Positions 1 through 11,651 of a stretch of 16,239 bases of DNA are shown piece after piece. Origin of the DNA: a virus. The stretch lies in the UHGV virus genome UHGV-1947574; one strand, written 5' to 3'. Positions within the stretch are counted from its first letter, which is position 1; each line of letters opens with the position of its first letter. The notes below the pieces were generated by a model. The model did no database searches. It was not told where the DNA came from and saw only the letters and a list, made by a program, of their open reading frames with translations. The position numbers and the translations under genes were made by a program.

Positions 1-907
1 CCAGCCTGCTGGCGGTGTGGCGGTGGGCCACGGAACCGGTACACCAACAGGCAATGCAGAGCCTTCCCCCAAACCAAGGTAATTGAGGACATCTTTTATA
101 CTGCCCTTAGCGATAATAGCGCGACCAATAGCTGTAAGGGTTGCCAGCGCTGCGCGGTCTGCTCCGGTAAAATAAGGCAACCGATCTGCTGCAGTGGCAA
201 GTCCTGCCAGAGCAGTGAGCGTGGCATCTGCCGGTTGTTTTCCGTTTGCCAGATCGTATGCAGCCTTGACCGCTTTCGGTGTGGCGGCCAGTATTTCAGA
301 CGTGCTGTTGATGGCACTGCTCAGTTGTACGGTGCCTTTTGCCGTCAGCGAGGCAGCAGGCACTCCCGTTATCTGACTCCACGGGTGAGTGTGGCTGGCG
401 GGNNNNNNNNNNNNNNNNNNNNNNNNNNNNNNNNNNNNNNNNNNNNNNNNNNNNNNNNNNGGCGGCCTCAGTTTCTGATTGACTGTCCGTGGCGCTGCTC
501 AGTTGTACGGTGCCTTTTGCCGTCAGCGAGGCAGCAGGCACTCCCGTTATCTGACTCCACGGGTGAGTGTGGCTGACGGGCGCCTTGCCGGCTGCAAGGT
601 CGTATGCAGCCTTGACGGCTTTTGGTGTGGCGGCCAGCGTTTCAGAGGTGCTGTTGGTGGCACTGCTCAGTTGGGTGAACCCCTTAGCTGTCAGTGTCGC
701 GTCCGGGTGGTTACGGGAACGTACGTGTTCAGCCAGTGACTGTGCGGCTTCCTCCGTTTTTTTCTTCAGCCATTTCGTCCTGTTTGCCAGTTGCCGGGGG
801 GCTCGATTTGATATCCCGTCTGCACCACCCAGAACCGGATCTGATGTCTCCAGTTGATAGATATTTTCTTCCCACTTTTCTGTTTCATTCAGGTTTCCCA
901 TAATCAA
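1..907 (-). CDS. Tail fiber protein (P2 gpH / Mu S-like), 3'-partial, interrupted by assembly gap
   Basis: N-terminus '...LGGADGISNRAPRQLANRTKWLK' is typical of P2 H/Mu S-type fibers. Repeated 'TAKGxVQLSSAxxSTSExLAATPKAVKAAYDLA' units (phage tail-fiber repeat type). Start is TTG at 907 or ATG at 901 (GGGAG 9 nt upstream). The listed ORF 296..907 stops at 296 only because the gap of arbitrary length breaks the frame. After the gap, the frame with codon starts at coordinates divisible by 3 is open from 396 to position 1 with no stop and encodes '...SHTHPWSQITGVPAASLTAKGTVQLSSAINSTSEILAATPKAVKAAYDLANGKQPADATLTALAGLATAADRLPYFTGADRAALATLTAIGRAII...'. Confidence 0.8.
64..89. promoter_or_regulatory. 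Candidate serine-invertase (Hin/Gin/Cin/Pin-type) crossover-like site inside tail fiber coding sequence
   Basis: 26-mer TTCCCCCAAACCAAGGTAATTGAGGA; the central AAACCAAGGT matches the centre of hixL as I recall it (TTCTTGAAAACCAAGGTTTTTGATAA), about 17/26 overall, and about 16/26 to gixL. It lies where the tail-fiber constant part would meet a variable C-terminal part. Comparison sequences are from memory. Confidence 0.35.
256..740. repeat. Tandem coding repeats within tail fiber gene (at least 3 units)
   Basis: 81-nt exact identity between 317..397 and 495..575; a more diverged copy around 601..700 shares the 'gtatgcagccttgac...ggtgtggcggccag...gctgttg.tggcactgctcagttg' core with 257..330. 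Confidence 0.8.
403..460. other. Assembly gap (58 N) inside tail fiber gene
   Basis: Run of N flanked on both sides by the same 81-nt sequence (317..397 and 495..575), i.e. the gap sits between near-identical tandem repeat units. Confidence 0.95.
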
Positions 908-2970: not shown

Positions 2971-3567
2971 TCAGTGGGAGTGGTGGCTGGAGTTTTCGCC
3001 ATCAGACAACATACTGCCCGTGGCATGGGCATTCCCTTTAATCTCGATATTGCCATGGATGGTCGCGGTAACACCTTCACCACCAGAACCCGCCATGCCT
3101 CCTTCGTAAATCAGTTTACCCCTGACACGCAGATCTCCGGTAAGTTCGGTTTCCGGTGCGTCAATCGTGGCTTTCTGTGTTTTCAATACCACATCAGCAC
3201 CACACTCAATGACAATATGCTCAATGCCGCCCCGGATGATCAGAGTGTGCGTCTTCCGGTTGTAGCTGTACTCTGCACCATCAGCAAACCGGGTTCCCCG
3301 GATATTTTTGTCACTGAACGGTGGTTTATCGACGTCTGAATACACCGCGCCCAGAATAACACCATCCTCGCCGTTGGCATCGAGCAGCACCTCAACCTGC
3401 TCCCCCACGTCAGGGAGCCAGTAATCTTTGTTATCCTGGATATTGCGCTGCAGCACGTTAAGCCAGTTTGTGCGCAGGTTATCGCATTCAGGCAGACGAA
3501 CGCGGGCCTGAACCCTGTCGGCATCAACGGCACTGACCGTACCGACCTGACGAGTGACACCAGTCAT
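2971..3567 (-). CDS. Baseplate assembly protein V-like central spike (P2 gpV / Mu gp45-like)
   Basis: 198 aa; ATG at 3567..3565 overlapping the D-like stop (ATGA); C-terminus ends GENSSHHSH; position after the D-like hub. Confidence 0.8.
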   Translation of the reverse strand: MTGVTRQVGTVSAVDADRVQARVRLPECDNLRTNWLNVLQRNIQDNKDYWLPDVGEQVEVLLDANGEDGVILGAVYSDVDKPPFSDKNIRGTRFADGAEYSYNRKTHTLIIRGGIEHIVIECGADVVLKTQKATIDAPETELTGDLRVRGKLIYEGGMAGSGGEGVTATIHGNIEIKGNAHATGSMLSDGENSSHHSH

Positions 3568-4718
3568 TTTTTCTTCTCCTTAATCACCGTCGATGTACTG
3601 CCATCCGGGTGATAAACCGTGAGTTTCTGAGTTTTTTGTTTTTTCCCTCTTGTGACTGGCCCCCGTGCCACTTCCAGCTCTGTGGTGTAGCCGCTGTTAC
3701 GGTCAAACGCATGGCGGGCAGTGGTTATGAGCCATGGCCCGGATAACTGCCCAAAACCCACCAGTTCAATTTTGTTGCCTGCTGTCAGTTGAGGTGTTCC
3801 CGTCAGCGTCAGGGAGCCGTTCTGCTGGTATTCGTTATGTCTGGCCAGTGCTGAATCCGCTTTAATCCGGGCACTGTCCGGGTCGCTGACGCGGCTGTTA
3901 ACTTTAAGTGAGTCAGCGCTGGTAACCTTACCACCTTTGAGCTTTTTGTCGCTTTCACGGGTACCACCATCAGCTTCGTAGACGATCAGTTTTTTACTGC
4001 TGCTTTTCTGGTGTTTTACCTTTGCAGATTTATAGACCCGGTTGATGGTGTCACGCAGGGAAAAGCGGGCCACATCCTGCGGTTTTAACTGCCTGACCGG
4101 CTCCTGACTGCGCAGTGTGGCCAGATGAGAAAAAATCAGCTGGTCACTGACCACTTTCACTGCATAACCATACTCGCTGGCCAGCCGGCGCAGAAAACCC
4201 ACGTCGGTTTCAGCATACTGGGTCACCCGGTCGATTCTGATGGACTCAATGCTGCCCACCAGTTTCAGCCGGTGCTTTCTGGCAATCCGCCCCGCAACAG
4301 CTGCCAGCGTGGTGTTCTCAAAACCACGGCTGGATTTAGTCCGCAGAGCACTGTTAACCGAGGTGGCCACCCCACGGATAGCGACAACGGACGCGGGCGA
4401 ACTCACTTCGATCTCGTCTATTGAGAATGTACCGCAGGACAGCAGTTTCTCGCCCTGATAACCCATTTTCAGCGTCAGCGTGTCACCCTTGCCCGGATAC
4501 CACTTATCCAGCCAGCGGCCATCGGTGTCGTCCAGCTCCACCTCAATGGTATCGGACTCATTTTTGATGTTATCGCTCCAGACCACACGGGTGACATAAG
4601 GCGCGATATCAGAGGTGATGTTTTTCTGCAGATACCACAGAGTGAATACCGGCGTCAGCACATCGCTGACGCCGGTTAACGCTGATGTGGCTTGCGCAGT
4701 ACTGTTTATCTCAGCCAT
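3564..4718 (-). CDS. Late control gene D-like tail/baseplate hub protein (P2 gpD / Mu gp44-like)
   Basis: 384 aa; ATG at 4718..4716; size and position (after U/X, before V) fit the GPD family. Confidence 0.85.
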   Translation of the reverse strand: MAEINSTAQATSALTGVSDVLTPVFTLWYLQKNITSDIAPYVTRVVWSDNIKNESDTIEVELDDTDGRWLDKWYPGKGDTLTLKMGYQGEKLLSCGTFSIDEIEVSSPASVVAIRGVATSVNSALRTKSSRGFENTTLAAVAGRIARKHRLKLVGSIESIRIDRVTQYAETDVGFLRRLASEYGYAVKVVSDQLIFSHLATLRSQEPVRQLKPQDVARFSLRDTINRVYKSAKVKHQKSSSKKLIVYEADGGTRESDKKLKGGKVTSADSLKVNSRVSDPDSARIKADSALARHNEYQQNGSLTLTGTPQLTAGNKIELVGFGQLSGPWLITTARHAFDRNSGYTTELEVARGPVTRGKKQKTQKLTVYHPDGSTSTVIKEKKK

Positions 4719-4918
4719 GGGGCAATATCCTCTTCTGTACGGGCATCTTCAGCCTCAATAACCGGGATCAGTAACAACAACCCGGAGGGCAGCACCGGCG
4801 TGATGGCCACGTGCGGATTGGCTGCAATAATCCGGGGATAGCCCAGCGGGTCACCGTAGTACTGCCATGCCAGCGAATCCCAGCGCTCTCCGTCACGGGT
4901 AATATGTTCAAGAAACAT
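4706..4918 (-). CDS. Tail protein X-like (P2 gpX, LysM-like)
   Basis: About 70 aa; 'GERWDSLAWQYYGDPLGYPRIIAANPHV...LPSG' parallels the P2 gpX 'GDTLDAICVRYYG...VLAANPGLA...LPHG' pattern as I recall it. ATG at 4918..4916 overlaps the upstream TGA; the track's start at 4921 is a GTG one codon earlier. Confidence 0.75.
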   Translation of the reverse strand: MFLEHITRDGERWDSLAWQYYGDPLGYPRIIAANPHVAITPVLPSGLLLLIPVIEAEDARTEEDIAPWLR

Positions 4919-5802
4919 CACACACTCCTCGTCAGTATTCTGGTGGCCATTGCACTTAATCCCGGAGACATGCGGTTGAATGCTGTGCCGGCGGCGTTAA
5001 GCTGCCCGGAAACGGTATCCAGAGCACCTGCAATATTTCTTTTGTCCACACCACTCAGCGCAGACTGTGCCTGCTGTACATACGTGGCTGCTTCGCTGGC
5101 TGTTCTGGCCAGACTGATGGCATCGGGCATGGATTCAGAGAGTGCGTTAAACGCCGGAACACTTTTCCCCAGAGCCCCGGAGATATTACCCAGTCCGCTC
5201 ATCAGCCCCGGCACACGGGTCAGTGCGACAACGGGGTTATCCTTCATTTTCTGTGTCACCCGAACGGCGCTGATAGTGGTCTGGAGTACAGACTGCGCCT
5301 GTTTCGCATAGTTGACGCCGTTGCGGATGAACTGCGCCACCCCTGAAGGCGAAGGAATGGCACCGGAGACCGCCCCGACACCCGGGAGCTTCGTGCGTAT
5401 TGCCGGTGGTTGCAGAGGATTTTTCGGGTCACCGGTGTATTCCCGGAGAGACACGGTGGCACTGACAGCCAGCACGTTGCCGGTACTGTCAGTCTGCTCG
5501 CTGGTTGCAGTCACATCGGTAATCACGAACCAGCCGCGATAGTCACCGTTGCCGAAGACCAGCGCCAGTGCCTGATGGGCTTTCATGGCTGTTCGCAGTC
5601 TCGCCAGCTCCACATCGGGTACACAATAATGCTGATGGAAAACCAGAGTTATCTGGATTTCGTCCAGCCTGTCGCCGACGAACTGCAGGCCAGGCTTACC
5701 CCCGATGCGGGCATGCTCCGCATAATCGACGCCGAACGTGGCCTCGAAGCCGTCCCAGTAGGTAATCAGCTCAAACTCAATATCACCCAGTACGGCAAAC
5801 AT
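4918..5802 (-). CDS. P2 gpU-like tail protein with about 150-aa Ala/Ser/Gly-rich C-terminal extension
   Basis: 294 aa; the N-terminal 140 aa ('LGDIEFEL...DYAEHARIGGKPGLQFVGDRLDEIQITLVF...DGNGDYRGWFVITDV...') align by eye with P2 gpU as I recall it; ATG at 5802..5800 overlaps the tape measure stop (TGATG). Confidence 0.7.
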   Translation of the reverse strand: MFAVLGDIEFELITYWDGFEATFGVDYAEHARIGGKPGLQFVGDRLDEIQITLVFHQHYCVPDVELARLRTAMKAHQALALVFGNGDYRGWFVITDVTATSEQTDSTGNVLAVSATVSLREYTGDPKNPLQPPAIRTKLPGVGAVSGAIPSPSGVAQFIRNGVNYAKQAQSVLQTTISAVRVTQKMKDNPVVALTRVPGLMSGLGNISGALGKSVPAFNALSESMPDAISLARTASEAATYVQQAQSALSGVDKRNIAGALDTVSGQLNAAGTAFNRMSPGLSAMATRILTRSV

Positions 5803-8753
5803 CAGCGGTACTCCTTACGTTGTTTCTGAGCCAGCAGACGCTCCAGCATTTTTTCCAGCTCATGCAGACTCATATTCAGGGCACCAGTCAGTCCTGCAGG
5901 CGCTGTGGTTTCCCTGCCATTGAGGAAAAACTGAGGATTAAAGCTGACCTGGATACCACCAGACGTTCCACCGCCGGTTGCAGCTGCACCACGGCCTGAA
6001 TATCCGGCAGCCATGATTTCAGGCGAGGGGATACGGGGAACATCCGGTGTCATCTCATTTGCCAGACGTTGCCCTGGTAAAATCGATGCCCGGGTGGAGA
6101 GCGGGATAGCGGGCATGGAAGACAAACTATTGATTACGGCTCCGATCGCATTTTTAGCAGACGACATAAACCCATTGATATCGGGCAACGGCATACTGAA
6201 GCGAACACCTGAAGTGTTATCCCGTATTTCTGGCCCCTGAATGCTCACGGGCATTTTGGGGAGCAGTTCACTGGCCATTCGCTGCCCGGCCAGAGCTGCA
6301 AGCGGAGTGGTCCGCTGCAGGCCAATGGCGGCCCCCTGCGCGATATTGTCACCAAAGCCCATAAACACGCGGCTCGGCGAATGAATGCCCAGCTTTTCGC
6401 TGAACCAGCCACTGATGCTGTCACCCATTCCGGTTACACTGGATTTGAGCGACTCCCATTTGTTTTTGATACCGTTAATCAGACCGTCGACAAGATGGCC
6501 ACCGAAGTCGGTGAACTTTGCCGGCAGATCAACACCAAGATATTTCAGCGCAGCTGCAAAGGCTTTATAGAGCAGACCTGCCGGCGACCAGTTAATCAGC
6601 AGCTTACCAGTTCCCGCGATACCGCCGTTAAAGGCTTCCTGAATGTCAGCCCAGCACTGTTTAAACCAGCTACTGATGCTGTCACCCATTCCGGTTACAC
6701 TGGATTTGAGCGACCCCCATTTGTTTTTGATACCGTTAATCAGACCGTCGATAAGATGGCCACCGAAGTCGGTGAACTTTGCCGGCAGAGCAACGCCGAA
6801 ATATTTCAGCGCAGCCGCAAAGGCTTTATAGAGCAGGCCTGCCGGCGACCAGTTAATCAGTAACTTACCAATTCCCACAATGCCGCCGTTAAAGGCTTCC
6901 TGAATGTCTGCCCAGCGCTGTTTAAACCAGCCACTGACTGCCCCCCAGTTGCGGTAGATAAGGTAAGCTGCTGCCGCGACAGCGGTGATAACGAGACCGA
7001 TGGGATTCATCATCAGCGCACGTCCAATCCAGAGAACAGCACGTCCGGCGAGCATAATTCCGCGAACCAGCCCCCCGGAGAGCACGCCACTCAGTGTTCT
7101 GGCTCCTCTGGCGACGGCGCTAAATCCGGTCACCAGCCAGCGGAGCTTACCGCCTTGCCCCAGTGCGAGCGACAGACGAAGCCAGTTGGCCCGAAGTAAA
7201 ACAGCATTTTTCCAGACACTTACAAAGGGGGAAATAAGGAGATTCAGCCCCAGTTTGAGACCAACAGTCGCTATCTTAATCGCAAGGAGCGCACTGATGA
7301 GCTTAAAAGCCCCACTGACAAATTGCGGGTGAGTCGCTACCCAGTGTTTTGCCCCCTGAATGAGTGGAAGCAGTTCCTGAGTCAAAGAAATAAAAGATGG
7401 AGCTAATTGATCGCCCAGCGTAATTGCCAGATCGCGACTGCTGACCATAAGTGTTTTAGTGGCTTCAAGGGGAGATTTCAGCCGCTGATCATAAGCACTG
7501 GCAAGCAAATCGTTATCCGCAGCCCTGAGAGCACCGGCACGGATCTCTCGATATCTGTCCATGTTGGCCAGCATCGGGCGGATAAATGCCATGACCTGCA
7601 TATCCGCGAACATATCGCCCAGACCAAAGTTTTTCGCCAGAGCCTGAAGTGCCTCATCTCTTGCCGTATCATTCTTTATTTTCATGGCTGATTTGAAGCC
7701 GGCCAGCGCTTCGGGGCTTTTGGCATTGAGGTAACGTTCTATAACACTCAACATCCCTTCAATCGGAGAGATCCCCGCAGCTTTATAACTCGCAATAGAT
7801 CCCTGCAAATCAATACCCAGATCAGCAAACTGTTTCTGAGTATCGCGGGCAAAAATTTTGGTAAGAAAGTTTTTAAAATTATTAGCTGCTTCGTCGGTGG
7901 AACCTGCACCGATTTTTGCTATCTGGAGACTGGCCCCGATTTCAGCAACAGCCTCTTTTCCACTGGCAATACCCGCCATCATTGGGGCCAGGGACTGCAT
8001 CCACTTGACCTGATCCGGGATTTCAAATGACCCCTGGTCACCGGCATAAGCCATAATATTCTGAACGGCACCAAAATCTCTGGCCGCACCTTTCAGGGAG
8101 TTTTGCCAGACTGCGGCCACTTTTGCCCAGTCCTGAGCAGACGTGCGTGTTGCCGTTGCCGCGCGGGCAATATCCGGCATCAGAAAACCGATATCTGACA
8201 CATTATCAATATTGTCGCTGATGAGTGAACCCACCGCCTCCTGCAGCTCATCCTGATACTGATTGTATTTAAGCGCCCAGCCTTTTATCTGTCCGGCAAG
8301 TGCATCCCGCGTTTTATTGTCATATTTTGCGGTGATCGACATATCAATCATTTTGTCCTGAAAAGACATGGACTGCTGAACGGCAGGGGAAACCGTATGA
8401 TAAACAGTCTGTGCCATGCCATACGCTTCAATCCCCTGACCATACAGCGCCATGCGGTTAGCTTTCAGCGCATCACTGGTAGCGGATGCCGCTGACAGAC
8501 GGCGCTGCTGGCGCTCAATTTGCTCCATGGTGCGGCTTACCCGCAGCAGCTCGCTGTTGAGATGCTGCATCCGGGAAGAACCCAGTTGACCATAACGTTC
8601 TGTTGCACGGGTTAAAGCGTTCTGACGTTCCTGCAGGCGGCGTGAGGTATCGCTCAGGGAATCAAGCGCACGGCGGGTACCGCTCATTGCAGAACGGAAT
8701 GTGCTGCCAATCATCCCGCCGATAACAACGCCGACTGAAAACTGTCCCGACAT
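5802..8753 (-). CDS. Tail tape measure protein
   Basis: 983 aa; ATG at 8753 with GGAGG 9 nt upstream; largest gene, immediately after the chaperone; hydrophobic segments plus long helical Ala/Gln/Arg-rich regions; contains an 87-aa tandem duplication. Confidence 0.9.
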   Translation of the reverse strand: MSGQFSVGVVIGGMIGSTFRSAMSGTRRALDSLSDTSRRLQERQNALTRATERYGQLGSSRMQHLNSELLRVSRTMEQIERQQRRLSAASATSDALKANRMALYGQGIEAYGMAQTVYHTVSPAVQQSMSFQDKMIDMSITAKYDNKTRDALAGQIKGWALKYNQYQDELQEAVGSLISDNIDNVSDIGFLMPDIARAATATRTSAQDWAKVAAVWQNSLKGAARDFGAVQNIMAYAGDQGSFEIPDQVKWMQSLAPMMAGIASGKEAVAEIGASLQIAKIGAGSTDEAANNFKNFLTKIFARDTQKQFADLGIDLQGSIASYKAAGISPIEGMLSVIERYLNAKSPEALAGFKSAMKIKNDTARDEALQALAKNFGLGDMFADMQVMAFIRPMLANMDRYREIRAGALRAADNDLLASAYDQRLKSPLEATKTLMVSSRDLAITLGDQLAPSFISLTQELLPLIQGAKHWVATHPQFVSGAFKLISALLAIKIATVGLKLGLNLLISPFVSVWKNAVLLRANWLRLSLALGQGGKLRWLVTGFSAVARGARTLSGVLSGGLVRGIMLAGRAVLWIGRALMMNPIGLVITAVAAAAYLIYRNWGAVSGWFKQRWADIQEAFNGGIVGIGKLLINWSPAGLLYKAFAAALKYFGVALPAKFTDFGGHLIDGLINGIKNKWGSLKSSVTGMGDSISSWFKQCWADIQEAFNGGIAGTGKLLINWSPAGLLYKAFAAALKYLGVDLPAKFTDFGGHLVDGLINGIKNKWESLKSSVTGMGDSISGWFSEKLGIHSPSRVFMGFGDNIAQGAAIGLQRTTPLAALAGQRMASELLPKMPVSIQGPEIRDNTSGVRFSMPLPDINGFMSSAKNAIGAVINSLSSMPAIPLSTRASILPGQRLANEMTPDVPRIPSPEIMAAGYSGRGAAATGGGTSGGIQVSFNPQFFLNGRETTAPAGLTGALNMSLHELEKMLERLLAQKQRKEYR
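6403..6924. repeat. In-frame tandem duplication inside tape measure gene (2 x 261 bp, about 93% identical)
   Basis: 'aaccagccactgatgctgtcaccc...' at 6403, recurring at 6664 and, truncated, at 6925; period 261 nt. Encodes 'WFKQ(R/C)WADIQEAFNGGI(V/A)G(I/T)GKLLINWSPAGLLYKAFAAALKY(F/L)GV(A/D)LPAKFTDFGGHL(I/V)DGLINGIKNKW(G/E)SLKSSVTGMGDSIS' twice. Confidence 0.95.
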
Positions 8754-8903
8754 AGTGGTTAACCTCCGGGGAAGGTGAAAAGACGTGAGGGAATAACGCA
8801 GAACAGCCGCTACTGGCGGGGGGCTGGAATTTTAGTTTTTTCCCGGCGGGACGAACCGTGGGGGGAAAAACCGCACCCCAGCCGCTACTGGCGGCTGTCT
8901 GTA

Positions 8904-9321
8904 CTATGATTTGTCGCCGTACTCGCTTTTTATTTGCTCTTCAGCCTGCTCCAGCCACATCTCCAGATCGTCAGTATCGAGGGCATCAATCTCCCCCGGC
9001 TGAAACCGGAACCATCTCGCCAGCAGCCCCTGCGCCTGCGTCAGCGCCCTGGTTGCTCTCACCCATCCCCGTGATGAGCTGAAATCGTTTCTGTAACTGC
9101 AGGTAATCAGCCAGATCCATATTGTCGAGATCTTCCGGGAGAAGACCAGTACTGCGGGCAATCAGCGGTTCGTCCCAGTCTGCCGGGTTTTTGCTGATTT
9201 TGCGCACCTGCTTCAGGTCTTTTACCGTCAGGCGTTTCAGTTCAACCAGCTCAATTCTGGTGCCTGCAGCAGTGGTGAAGGGATAAGACAATTTAAAAGT
9301 ATCGGATGGGGTCTGTGACAT
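8904..9321 (-). CDS. Putative frameshift-extended chaperone (E+E' / G-T-like fusion); shift geometry +1 (or -2)
   Basis: A second frame stays open across the 3' part of the chaperone gene and continues 82 nt past its stop to a TAG at 8906..8904, ending '...GEIDALDTDDLEMWLEQAEEQIKSEYGDKS'. It has no ATG of its own upstream of the overlap. Candidate shift site: the G5 run (minus strand) at 8993..8997, just before the chaperone stop. Confidence 0.5.
8986..9321 (-). CDS. Tail assembly chaperone (P2 gpE / lambda G-like)
   Basis: 111 aa; ATG at 9321 with AGGAG 7 nt upstream; sits directly upstream of the tape measure gene, the conserved chaperone position. Confidence 0.7.
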   Translation of the reverse strand: MSQTPSDTFKLSYPFTTAAGTRIELVELKRLTVKDLKQVRKISKNPADWDEPLIARSTGLLPEDLDNMDLADYLQLQKRFQLITGMGESNQGADAGAGAAGEMVPVSAGGD

Positions 9322-9702: not shown

Positions 9703-10224
9703 TCAGCCCCCGATATTGATACGGTAGTCAGTCAGTTGATCAACACCGCCGACCCGGAAGATGTTGGCCAGATAGTCCAGTTGCAGCAGCTCTTCACCAT
9801 CCAGTACCTGTCTGATATACGTGCAGGTGAAGCTACTGGAGAACTCGGCGTTCTCGTGCTGTTTGAACGTCCCCAGCGGGTTCTTCTTGAACATAATCGT
9901 CAGGAAGGTGACCAGCGGGATTTCGTCAATCAGCCCCTGCGAGCTGTAGCGCTGGACGCTGGAACGACACTGCAGTGCCAGCGACCTGTACGGGTTCGCG
10001 GCAGACAGCATCGCATCGCGGTAAAAGCTGTTCCATTTGATTTCGCCTTCCAGTTTGTCAAAACCAGCCGGGAGTTCCACCTTACCCACCATCCCCAGCG
10101 CCTTGTGTTCCTGCATAATCATGGAGACATCGGGGAGTTTAACTTCCTCAGCCCGTCCCAGCAGGTTAGTACCATCCAGATAGATGTTGGCATTCGTGAT
10201 GCGGTTTATCTCAATCTTTGACAT
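9703..10224 (-). CDS. Tail tube protein (P2 FII / Mu M-like)
   Basis: 173 aa; ATG at 10224..10222 overlaps the sheath stop (ATGA); size and position right after the sheath gene. Confidence 0.85.
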   Translation of the reverse strand: MSKIEINRITNANIYLDGTNLLGRAEEVKLPDVSMIMQEHKALGMVGKVELPAGFDKLEGEIKWNSFYRDAMLSAANPYRSLALQCRSSVQRYSSQGLIDEIPLVTFLTIMFKKNPLGTFKQHENAEFSSSFTCTYIRQVLDGEELLQLDYLANIFRVGGVDQLTDYRINIGG

Positions 10225-11651
10225 CAGTTGCCCCCTTTCAGGGTTAACAGGTATTCCGAGGTGATCTCAGTCTCAAACGTCAGTCGCTCCAGCGGCGGTG
10301 GTGGCGTATATTTGTAGCTCAGCAACAGGTGCCCGGCGGCCAGCTCCGTCTCCGGATTGCGGGCCGGATCAAACCAGCAACGGAAGCCCAGTACCGCACC
10401 ATCACCAGTCATTTTGCGACCGTAGGCGTTGACCGACTCCGTCAGTGCATCAATCAGCGCCTGAGTAATCGGCATGTCGATGTACTGCTGGCTGAAATAA
10501 CGAATGGACTCGTTGATCACATCACCGGTGCGGCGAACGTTCTCAAAGTTACGCATATGGGTGACCGTTGGCCATGCTGCCGTCCGGTTACCCCACAGAC
10601 GAAGGCCGCTGCCGTAACTGCTGAATACCGTGGTGATCCCCTGTTCGTTAAGCAGGTTCACCTCACTCTGCGGGTCATCAATCATCGCGGACAGCTGGCG
10701 CTCCACGCCAGTGATCCCCAGAATCTCCTGATTGGAGGATGACCACCAGTAGCCCTTGTCCAGATCGACTCTGGCACGCAGACCTGCTGCACGCTGGCTG
10801 AGCGGCTCCAGACGCTCTGTGTTTGTCACCGGGTCATATACCTTCACATGCGGATAGCACAGACGGACGCGGTCGGAGCTGGTATTGAAGTTGATGGTGC
10901 CTTCCGGGCCACGACCTGCCAGAGCCTGTGCAAAGGTGGTACCGACAGGCGCATCAATGTAGGTTACCGCGCCCAGCTTCTCTGCCATGGCGATAAGCTC
11001 AACTGCGACACTCTTCTGGGTGCAGAACACCGGCGCAATCAGAATTTTGGCGAAATAGCCGTACAGGTTGAAGCTGTCGTTAAGCAGCTTCATGCCGGTT
11101 CGGTTTCCGGCGCTGTTCACCCCGCCGATGATGTCCGCCGCAGTCACCTTCGACGGGTCCGCGTACTCATAGCTCACCTTCACGCTGCCACCGGCCTCAA
11201 TAGCCTTGCCCAGGTTCGTGAGCACACCCGCCTGCGCATCAACACGGTAGTCCGTGTTCGCCGTGTGGGAGGTGCTGCCTTCACTGTTTTTCACCACCAC
11301 ATTAGCGACAACCGGATGCGCCAGTCTGGCCTGCCCTGTCGATTTGTCAAAGGTAACCACCTCATCCTCGATCGCCGTTTTATGTTTCGCCGGGTCGAGG
11401 ACGTTAATGACCAGAACGATACCTGCACCATGGTCATAAATCGCATCCAGCGCCTGCGGAATGGTAAAGCCGGTGAACTGGCTGCCAAATGCCGCTGCGT
11501 CTTTCTCAGACAGGCACTGTACCAGCGTATTGACATCCCCCATCGGGGCGGTACCAATCAGGCCAATAACGGCAGATTTCACCGTTTTAACCGGGCGGGC
11601 ACCGTTTTCCACCTCAATGGTTTCGGGACCATGCAGATAGTTAGCTGCCAT
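10224..11651 (-). CDS. Tail sheath protein (P2 FI / Mu L-like)
   Basis: 475 aa; ATG at 11651..11649; size and position typical of contractile sheath proteins. Confidence 0.9.
   Translation of the reverse strand: MAANYLHGPETIEVENGARPVKTVKSAVIGLIGTAPMGDVNTLVQCLSEKDAAAFGSQFTGFTIPQALDAIYDHGAGIVLVINVLDPAKHKTAIEDEVVTFDKSTGQARLAHPVVANVVVKNSEGSTSHTANTDYRVDAQAGVLTNLGKAIEAGGSVKVSYEYADPSKVTAADIIGGVNSAGNRTGMKLLNDSFNLYGYFAKILIAPVFCTQKSVAVELIAMAEKLGAVTYIDAPVGTTFAQALAGRGPEGTINFNTSSDRVRLCYPHVKVYDPVTNTERLEPLSQRAAGLRARVDLDKGYWWSSSNQEILGITGVERQLSAMIDDPQSEVNLLNEQGITTVFSSYGSGLRLWGNRTAAWPTVTHMRNFENVRRTGDVINESIRYFSQQYIDMPITQALIDALTESVNAYGRKMTGDGAVLGFRCWFDPARNPETELAAGHLLLSYKYTPPPPLERLTFETEITSEYLLTLKGGN

Follow-up and report, generated by a model that had tools for sequence, protein, structure and literature searches.

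Tape measure proteins and their repeats

In tailed phages, the length of the tail is set by the length of its tape measure protein (TMP). To our knowledge, nearly all direct evidence for this ruler function comes from engineered siphovirus mutants. Here, we describe a natural series of TMP alleles in an Escherichia coli prophage, which differ from each other by whole 87-residue units. The starting point was the virus genome UHGV-1947574 (16,239 nt, analyzed at its full length and referred to as the window), in which the TMP gene carries two copies of a 261-bp in-frame tandem unit.

The closest described systems are laboratory constructs. In-frame deletions and duplications were engineered in the TMP of phage TP901-1 (Pedersen et al., 2000, as summarized in Mahony et al., 2016, PMC5099701) and deletions in gpH of phage lambda (Katsura and Hendrix, 1984, as cited in PMC3271669). 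As at the locus described here, in-frame TMP segments are lost or gained in these constructs, and there the changes are tolerated and tail length is altered in proportion. The authors of the TP901-1 work proposed repeats to be "natural facilitators of domain duplication/deletion" (PMC5099701). In contrast to these siphovirus constructs, the locus in the window belongs to a natural series of one, two and three units in a contractile-tailed prophage, which shows recombination footprints.

TMPs were furthermore reported to contain variable numbers of tandem repeats of 11 aa (or 11/18 aa) that are marked by tryptophan or phenylalanine (W/F) (Belcaid, Bergeron and Poisson, 2011, PMC3271669). In both cases tandem TMP units are gained and lost and W/F mark the unit boundaries, the units of the window starting with WF. 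However, these repeats measure 11 aa, whereas the unit of the window has 87 aa and shows no evident 11/18-aa aromatic periodicity inside: the W/F autocorrelation of aa 560-700 has weak equal peaks at lags 7, 11, 18, 34, and 42 (three counts each) and no dominant period. In the Clostridium example of that study the units resemble their orthologs more than their paralogs, reflecting a shared old history, while at the present locus very recent gains and losses between otherwise identical genes are found as well. Tandem repeats were also listed as contributors to TMP length variation in a survey from 2026 (PMC13585406).

For contractile tails it was described that the TMP fills the lumen of the tube and determines its length (PMC11915804). 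The TMP of the window has the same gene position as P2 gpT and Mu gp42 (chaperone E/E' – T – U – X – D). In E. coli ST131, a conserved "intact prophage with tailocin-like tail" was reported (s2-ST131; Tantoso et al., 2022, PMC9205054), the listed genes of which (a P2/pyocin-R2-like tail including TMP and GpE, DUF935, DUF3486, and SLT) match the architecture of the prophage in the window; this is a likeness in gene content, the RefSeq protein accessions searched for being absent from the supplements of that paper. The TMP repeat is not discussed there. The ST131 strain JJ1886 carries the two-unit allele described below.

It is therefore already established that tandem units of TMPs evolve by duplication and loss (PMC3271669), that in-frame length changes are tolerated and that repeats may act as facilitators (PMC5099701). 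New is a natural series of well-resolved alleles in an E. coli prophage with a contractile tail, the recombination footprints being exact. In the literature searched, no earlier description of this one-, two- and three-unit polymorphism was found, although absence there is not proof. Overall, we regard it as probable, at roughly 0.8, that the TMP gene carries an old pair of 87-residue modules, from which unequal recombination has generated natural one-, two- and three-unit alleles, each unit being predicted to alter the length of the tail.

A 261-bp tandem repeat inside the tape measure gene

The assignment of the gene is supported by a match to PF10145 PhageMin_Tail (74 bits at a Pfam cut-off of 33.2), by a match to phrog_28, "tail length tape measure protein" (E 8.5e-135), next to many other TMP phrogs, and by an identical gene that is labeled "phage tail tape measure protein" in RefSeq. 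Tandem Repeats Finder (TRF) reported a single long array at 6403..6937 with a period of 261, 2.0 copies, 93% matches, 0% indels and a score of 951. The base-by-base comparison of 6403..6663 with 6664..6924 gave 17 mismatches in 261 positions, i.e., 93.5% identity, without any indel. A repeat of such length and identity cannot have originated by chance.

The repeat covers approximately aa 606-784 of the TMP, and both units, termed A (N-proximal) and B (C-proximal), open with WFKQ(R/C)WADIQEAF. They differ by eight amino-acid changes (9 nt) and by seven synonymous codons (8 nt), and 8 of the 17 differences affect the third base of a codon in the minus-strand frame. Plus-strand open reading frames (ORFs) overlapping the repeat (6381..6863 and others) were set aside as mechanical, because the substitutions track the minus-strand frame. 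The in-frame tandem duplication of 87 codons inside the TMP gene, which the first-pass annotation had proposed from the letters together with its position and an identity of about 93%, is thus borne out by TRF, the direct comparison, PF10145, phrog_28, and the position of the gene.

The homology extends by a further 13 nt (6925..6937), after which similarity is lost abruptly on both sides of the array. These 13 nt had been taken as the start of a third unit; the homology is present, but it is not a decayed third copy, as it corresponds to a brief motif at the junction (TCAGTRGC-TGGTT, coding for S-x-W-F), which is also found on both sides of the single unit in one-unit relatives (L007-L009). 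A scan of the whole window against Rfam yielded no family at the gathering score, and therefore nothing at the RNA level that would explain the repeat or the adjacent sequence.

Copy-number alleles in related prophages

The TMP gene is present in about 636 of 5,426 complete E. coli genomes. Copy number was derived by searching these genomes with a flank-to-flank query (6100..7240) and by translating the recorded spans into implied unit numbers; a three-unit target was recognized by an alignment that stops at query position 856 while the target continues into another unit, and all three of the three-unit calls that were checked on fetched sequence were verified. In an evenly spaced sample of 60 out of 634 E. 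coli genomes two units were found 42 times, three units 11 times, one unit six times, and a remnant once.

The representatives encode intact TMP genes in otherwise syntenic prophages. One-unit genes have 2691 bp and encode 896 aa (strains E30 and IPCEC48, the latter NZ_AP026794), two-unit genes have 2952 bp and encode 983 aa (window and JJ1886, the latter NC_022648), and three-unit genes have 3213 bp and encode 1070 aa (C 237-04, G749, and elppa9). S1-ZIM-01-A carries two units together with an upstream deletion of 22 aa (2886 bp, 961 aa), and the more distant relatives L007-L009 carry one unit in genes of 2466-2478 bp (821-825 aa). The spacing of the WF motif is exactly 87 aa in all alleles. 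The comparison with related prophages, which had been suggested as a check, hence yields TMPs of 896, 983, and 1070 aa for one, two and three units.

The same classes are found among proteins. Among the 120 best clusters of a collection clustered at 90% identity, 26 have 896 aa, 37 have 983 aa with two units and 13 have 1070 aa with three units. The 983-aa class is dominant in the collection and includes a cluster with 1,995 member sequences. A four-unit allele was found neither in these 120 clusters nor in the sample of 60 genomes; the longest protein among the 120 clusters has 1084 aa, its WF motifs marking off three intervals of 101, 87, and 87 aa.

Two further length differences were observed outside of the repeat. 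In NZ_CP145671 (L010), an in-frame deletion of 22 aa, LVTGFSAVARGARTLSGVLSGG, relative to aa 540-561 of the window TMP (approximately 7071..7136) results in a two-unit TMP of 961 aa, and this length class recurs in the protein collection, e.g., as a cluster with 51 members. The distant one-unit TMPs (L007-L009) lack exactly 71 aa at window positions 6057..6269 (aa 829-899). This gap is edged by the similar motifs AGQRMAS… and PGQRLANE…, the two halves being weakly alike (local score of 56 over 29 aa), and it is possibly another old duplication or a deletion between short repeats.

Recombination footprints

At the 17 sites by which the two units of the window can be told apart, every unit was scored for the A or the B state, a switch being denoted here by a slash. 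The single unit of E30 (L002) reads AAAAAAAAA/BBBBBBBB and that of IPCEC48 (L003) A/BBBBBBBBBBBBBBBB. Of the three-unit alleles, C 237-04 (L005) contains A, then BBBBBB/A(B)AAAAAAAAA and then B, while G749 and elppa9 (L006 and L011) contain A, A, and B. The unit of IPCEC48 is an exact chimera, with 0 mismatches, of the first and the second unit of JJ1886, with the crossover within a 79-nt identity block of these two units, and in the other 2,430 bp of the TMP gene the one-unit allele of IPCEC48 and the two-unit allele of JJ1886 show 0 differences. Similarly, the middle unit of C 237-04 is an exact chimera, with 0 mismatches, of its own third and first units. Outside of the repeat, the window differs from one-unit E30 at 8 of 2430 flank sites and from three-unit C 237-04 at 11 of 2430.

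At the protein level, at least six different patterns of the switch from A to B were found in the one-unit alleles among the best 120 clusters, and several different arrangements in the three-unit alleles. From these it follows that contractions and expansions have each occurred several times, on at least two flank backgrounds. The pattern is that of an array under unequal recombination, with alleles differing by whole units, chimeras with a single switch, and products of both deletion and expansion. As read from their switch patterns, the chimeric alleles are the reciprocal products expected of unequal crossing-over between misaligned A-B arrays, and the gains and losses of units are recent relative to point substitution. 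The earlier description of the repeat as an unstable tract that can expand and contract by recombination is strongly supported by these one-, two- and three-unit alleles with chimeric units.

An ancient and fixed two-unit structure without ongoing dynamics would account for the two-unit form being the majority state and for the divergence of the copies. We consider it extremely unlikely, as one- and three-unit alleles with exact chimeric units occur in otherwise identical or near-identical genes. Within the JJ1886-type group, copy number had changed in 1 of about 35 sampled genomes, so that switching is occasional and not a high-frequency phase variation. A phase-variable simple-sequence contingency locus was considered as well and rejected: the unit has 261 nt and not 1-9 nt, and no allele is out of frame or disrupted.

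A mosaic patch adjoins the repeat on its N-terminal side, at 6954..7256 of the window (approximately aa 500-600, TMP nt 1501-1800), i.e., in the hydrophobic region of the protein. In this patch the window shares 78-82% identity with the JJ1886-type and G749-type alleles (dS ~0.55, dN ~0.14; synonymous and nonsynonymous divergence, respectively), compared to at least 99% in the remainder of the gene.

Age and origin of the A-B pair

The first-pass annotation regarded the duplication as recent. If this were the case, and the duplication were private or nearly private to the window genome, two units with 93.5% identity and no indels would be expected, as is observed. However, dS between A and B is 0.168 with a dN of 0.041 (NG86), whereas dS among the one-, two- and three-unit alleles over TMP nt 1-1350 amounts to 0.003-0.01, so that the pair has diverged 20-50 times as much as the alleles have elsewhere in the gene. 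The diverged A-B pair is shared by hundreds of complete E. coli genomes, about 70% of the 634 with the prophage having two units as judged from the 60-genome sample. Units identical to B of the window are found as the second unit of L010 and as the third units of C 237-04 and G749, and the first unit of C 237-04 is 1 nt away from A of the window. In comparison to the one-unit outgroups, the window shows a dS of 0.12-0.18 over TMP nt 1-1350 and of 0.28-0.55 within the unit, and the single units of these outgroups are a mixture of A-state and B-state bases, which suggests that both copies changed after the duplication.

As the diverged pair is widespread, dS between A and B is high and the outgroups are mixed, the word "recent" is not supported, and a recent duplication in the window genome is highly improbable. 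The two-unit arrangement is rather, by these comparisons, old relative to the spread of the prophage family. Relatives with the same two diverged units had been named beforehand as evidence for an ancient and fixed structure; such relatives exist, which speaks against "recent", but "fixed" does not hold, as copy number varies.

In one-unit relatives the single unit is bracketed by an imperfect direct repeat of about 13 nt, TCAGTxxCTGGTT (S-x-W-F), and it is plausible that this repeat was the seed of the original duplication. Alternatively, the A-B pair could have been joined by unequal or illegitimate recombination of two already diverged one-unit alleles from related phages. The divergence would then predate the duplication; this concerns the origin only, as the two-unit arrangement predates the spread of the family either way. 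Consistent with such a joining, mosaic exchange with diverged alleles has taken place right beside the repeat (in the patch at TMP nt 1501-1800 described above), and dS between A and B is similar to that between lineage and outgroups in the conserved N-terminal part. However, no extant pure-A or pure-B one-unit allele was found in an otherwise diverged background, and the one-unit alleles near the window lineage are A/B chimeras. We therefore take the joining of two diverged alleles as a possible but less likely origin than a tandem duplication followed by divergence of the copies.

Copy number and genome assembly

A repeat of 261 bp can break short-read assemblies, and the record of the closest cultured relative, Escherichia phage PhiKM (L001, PQ738613, 6001..8866), contains a TMP that is split into two coding sequences, "disrupted by sequencing gap", exactly at the repeat. 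The concern that the assembler had collapsed or expanded the repeat was thus reasonable in general. For the allele of the window it does not apply, as an identical (100%) copy of the 2952-bp gene is found in at least five complete genomes; two more are found at 100.0% with a slightly lower bit score, and the gene is 99.6% identical in the finished genomes of IAI39 and CE10. In addition, the 17 differences let an assembler tell the units apart, and the dominance of the 983-aa class in the protein collection speaks against an artifact as well. Because at least five complete genomes carry the identical gene, it is very unlikely that the two units are an assembly artifact and that the true copy number in the window genome is not two.

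The module in other tape measure proteins and its predicted structure

With one unit as query against 1.84 billion representative proteins, 604 proteins were matched at E ≤1e-3 and 323 at E ≤1e-10. Among the top 150, 91 matches are near full length; 67 of these proteins have one copy, 22 have two, one has three, and one has four. The copies in other TMPs are spaced by 76 aa (the commonest value), 87 aa, 113-114 aa, or other distances, which indicates that the module was duplicated repeatedly and with different boundaries.

A search with the TMP sequence against all PDB chains gave no match at E ≤0.01, and thus no structural template for the module. This holds for the P2 gpT/Mu gp42 type as well, no solved chain of which matches the window TMP by sequence; with 983 aa and a duplicated module, the latter is longer than the protein of Mu, which has about 690 aa. 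An AlphaFold2 model of aa 543-834 (292 of 983 residues), based on an alignment of 30 sequences, has a mean pLDDT of 72.7 and a pTM of 0.33; it consists of about 90% helix, which is interrupted at corresponding positions in each unit. The module, located in the C-terminal third of the TMP, is accordingly predicted to be mostly alpha-helical. Just N-terminal of the repeat, two hydrophobic segments were found at aa 478-508 and aa 579-600 (Kyte-Doolittle, 19-aa windows ≥1.6). Helix in the 292 modeled residues and hydrophobic segments are features of a long, mainly alpha-helical protein as anticipated for a TMP.

Mechanism and consequences for tail length

The alleles could have been formed as follows. 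The direct repeat of about 13 nt with the S-x-W-F codons that flanks a single unit probably seeded the duplication. A and B may then undergo occasional unequal homologous recombination, because blocks of 20-80 nt have remained identical between the 261-bp units. Each such event would remove or add exactly one in-frame unit, giving proteins of 896, 983, and 1070 aa, and each unit would shift tail length by about 13 nm, i.e., by about three to four rings of tube and sheath hexamers.

The size of this step was derived from two published systems. In TP901-1, 118 nm are set by about 810 length-determining residues, corresponding to approximately 0.146 nm per residue, and in-frame deletions and a duplication, including a deletion in a hydrophobic region, shift tail length in proportion (PMC5099701). 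In Mu, 30 tube/sheath rings are matched by a TMP of about 690 aa, i.e., about 23 residues per ring (PMC11915804). With both calibrations, a unit of 87 residues would correspond to about 13 nm or three to four rings. Because tail length scales with TMP length, about 13 nm per unit can be soundly expected from these calibrations, and the one-, two- and three-unit alleles should lead to three tail lengths.

Several points weigh against an old module pair that alters tail length by unequal recombination. Some chimeras, e.g., the first unit of JJ1886 (A/BBBBBBB/AAAAAAAAA), need more than one exchange or gene conversion. The census is composed of a sample of 60 rows and of protein clusters at 90% identity and is not a full count. 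The AlphaFold2 model is of moderate confidence (pTM 0.33) and describes a monomer, while the protein is a trimer confined in the tube. Furthermore, the repeat adjoins hydrophobic segments and inside the tube it may adopt another form than that of a fully extended helix, so that the figure per residue may differ. The steps in tail length, finally, are predicted from gene sequences.

Copy number could also matter mainly after ejection of the TMP, in spanning the periplasm or as a conduit for the DNA, and not for tail length. The module directly follows the hydrophobic, membrane-like segments, and TMPs are ejected and thought to aid the transit of DNA (PMC5099701, PMC11915804). We consider this explanation unlikely, since in TP901-1 deletions outside of the aromatic repeats, including a hydrophobic region, shorten the tail proportionally as well; moreover, a role after ejection would be compatible with a ruler effect.

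If units act on tail length as proposed, the 896/983/1070-aa series, of which one pair is identical outside of the repeat, is ready-made for a clean test of the ruler model. It could show how a length increment that is not an integer number of rings is rounded to whole rings of tube and sheath, and if tail length affects host range or fitness. About 12% of complete E. coli genomes, among them ST131, contain the prophage family, and in practical terms the repeat is a known pitfall when short reads are assembled and when this prophage, common in clinically important E. coli lineages, is typed from annotations. A far-reaching and rather doubtful extension would be that tail length is a polymorphic trait tunable by recombination, with three length morphs kept by selection and the repeat acting as a built-in length switch instead of being a neutral accident. 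In that case, the reach of the contracted tube could match the thickness of the capsule, the O-antigen or the envelope of different hosts.

Gene neighborhood

On the minus strand, the genes are ordered as sheath, tube, a small ORF, gpE-like chaperone, TMP, gpU, gpX, gpD, V, W, J, I, and tail fiber, with Mu-type head and connector genes upstream of the tail genes (Table 1). Sheath and tube lie upstream of the TMP gene, which has the tail chaperone on one side and the baseplate-hub genes on the other. Gene order and family matches thus point to the TMP of a contractile-tailed prophage, and judged by its genes the element is an E. coli prophage with Mu-like head genes, P2-like tail genes and a contractile tail. 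PhiKM, which is classified as Bcepmuvirus, is 96.7% identical over the TMP gene.

Table 1. Positions of the tape measure gene, its repeat and neighboring tail genes in the window.
Feature	Position	Strand	Basis or remark
Tail tape measure protein (TMP) gene, 983 aa, 2952 bp	5802..8753	minus	ORF and translation, Pfam, phrog
Repeat unit A, N-proximal, aa 609-695, starts WFKQRWADIQEAF	6669..6929	minus	TRF register on plus strand 6664..6924
Repeat unit B, C-proximal, aa 696-782, starts WFKQCWADIQEAF	6408..6668	minus	TRF register on plus strand 6403..6663
13-nt junction homology, N-terminal edge of array (…TCAGTGGC/TGGTT, S-G-W-F)	6925..6937	minus	
Matching junction motif, C-terminal edge of array (…SISG/WFSE…)	6403..6416	minus	
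TMP hydrophobic segments	6954..7322	minus	aa 478-508 and 579-600
Tail assembly chaperone, gpE-like	8986..9321	minus	PF10109 Phage_TAC_7, E 5.5e-21; directly upstream of TMP gene
gpU-like tail protein	4918..5802	minus	PF06995 Phage_P2_GpU, E 7.4e-39; directly downstream of TMP gene
Tail tube and tail sheath	9703..10224 and 10224..11651	minus	PF04985, PF04984, PF17482; contractile tail
gpX	4706-4921	minus	
gpD	3564-4718	minus	

An ORF of the GpE family (E') at 8904..9161 overlaps the end of the chaperone gene on the minus strand. In P2, E/E' is a -1 frameshift. The frame relation of E' and chaperone in the window differs from this, being +1 (equivalently -2) by coordinates, and no slippery heptamer of the type X XXY YYZ was found in the overlap. 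The annotation of strain E30 gives the chaperone as a pseudogene containing an internal stop. Strain E300010 (L012, NZ_CM128601) contains a degraded copy of the prophage with TMP fragments, a truncated gpU, and truncated portal and head genes, all of which are annotated as partial pseudogenes. At the edge of the window, in the tail-fiber region, TRF reported a perfect two-copy tandem repeat of 8 nt, TGGCGGTG, at 10..25 (score 32), which is probably trivial.

A 75-bp insertion upstream of the tape measure gene

The window carries an insertion of 75 bp (8804..8878), located between the start codon of the TMP gene and the stop of the chaperone E' frame. Neither PhiKM nor four E. coli relatives carry it, and it is missing from all 637 complete E. 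coli genomes in which the region is present, the best spans there being 626 (701-75) in near and distant search modes; an exact match in species-representative genomes or an Rfam family was not found either. The insertion is edged by a 16-nt direct repeat, CAGCCGCTACTGGCGG, at 8804 and 8879, which is itself a hairpin. For the minus-strand RNA of the insertion, a fold of -45.2 kcal/mol is predicted (z = -3.8).

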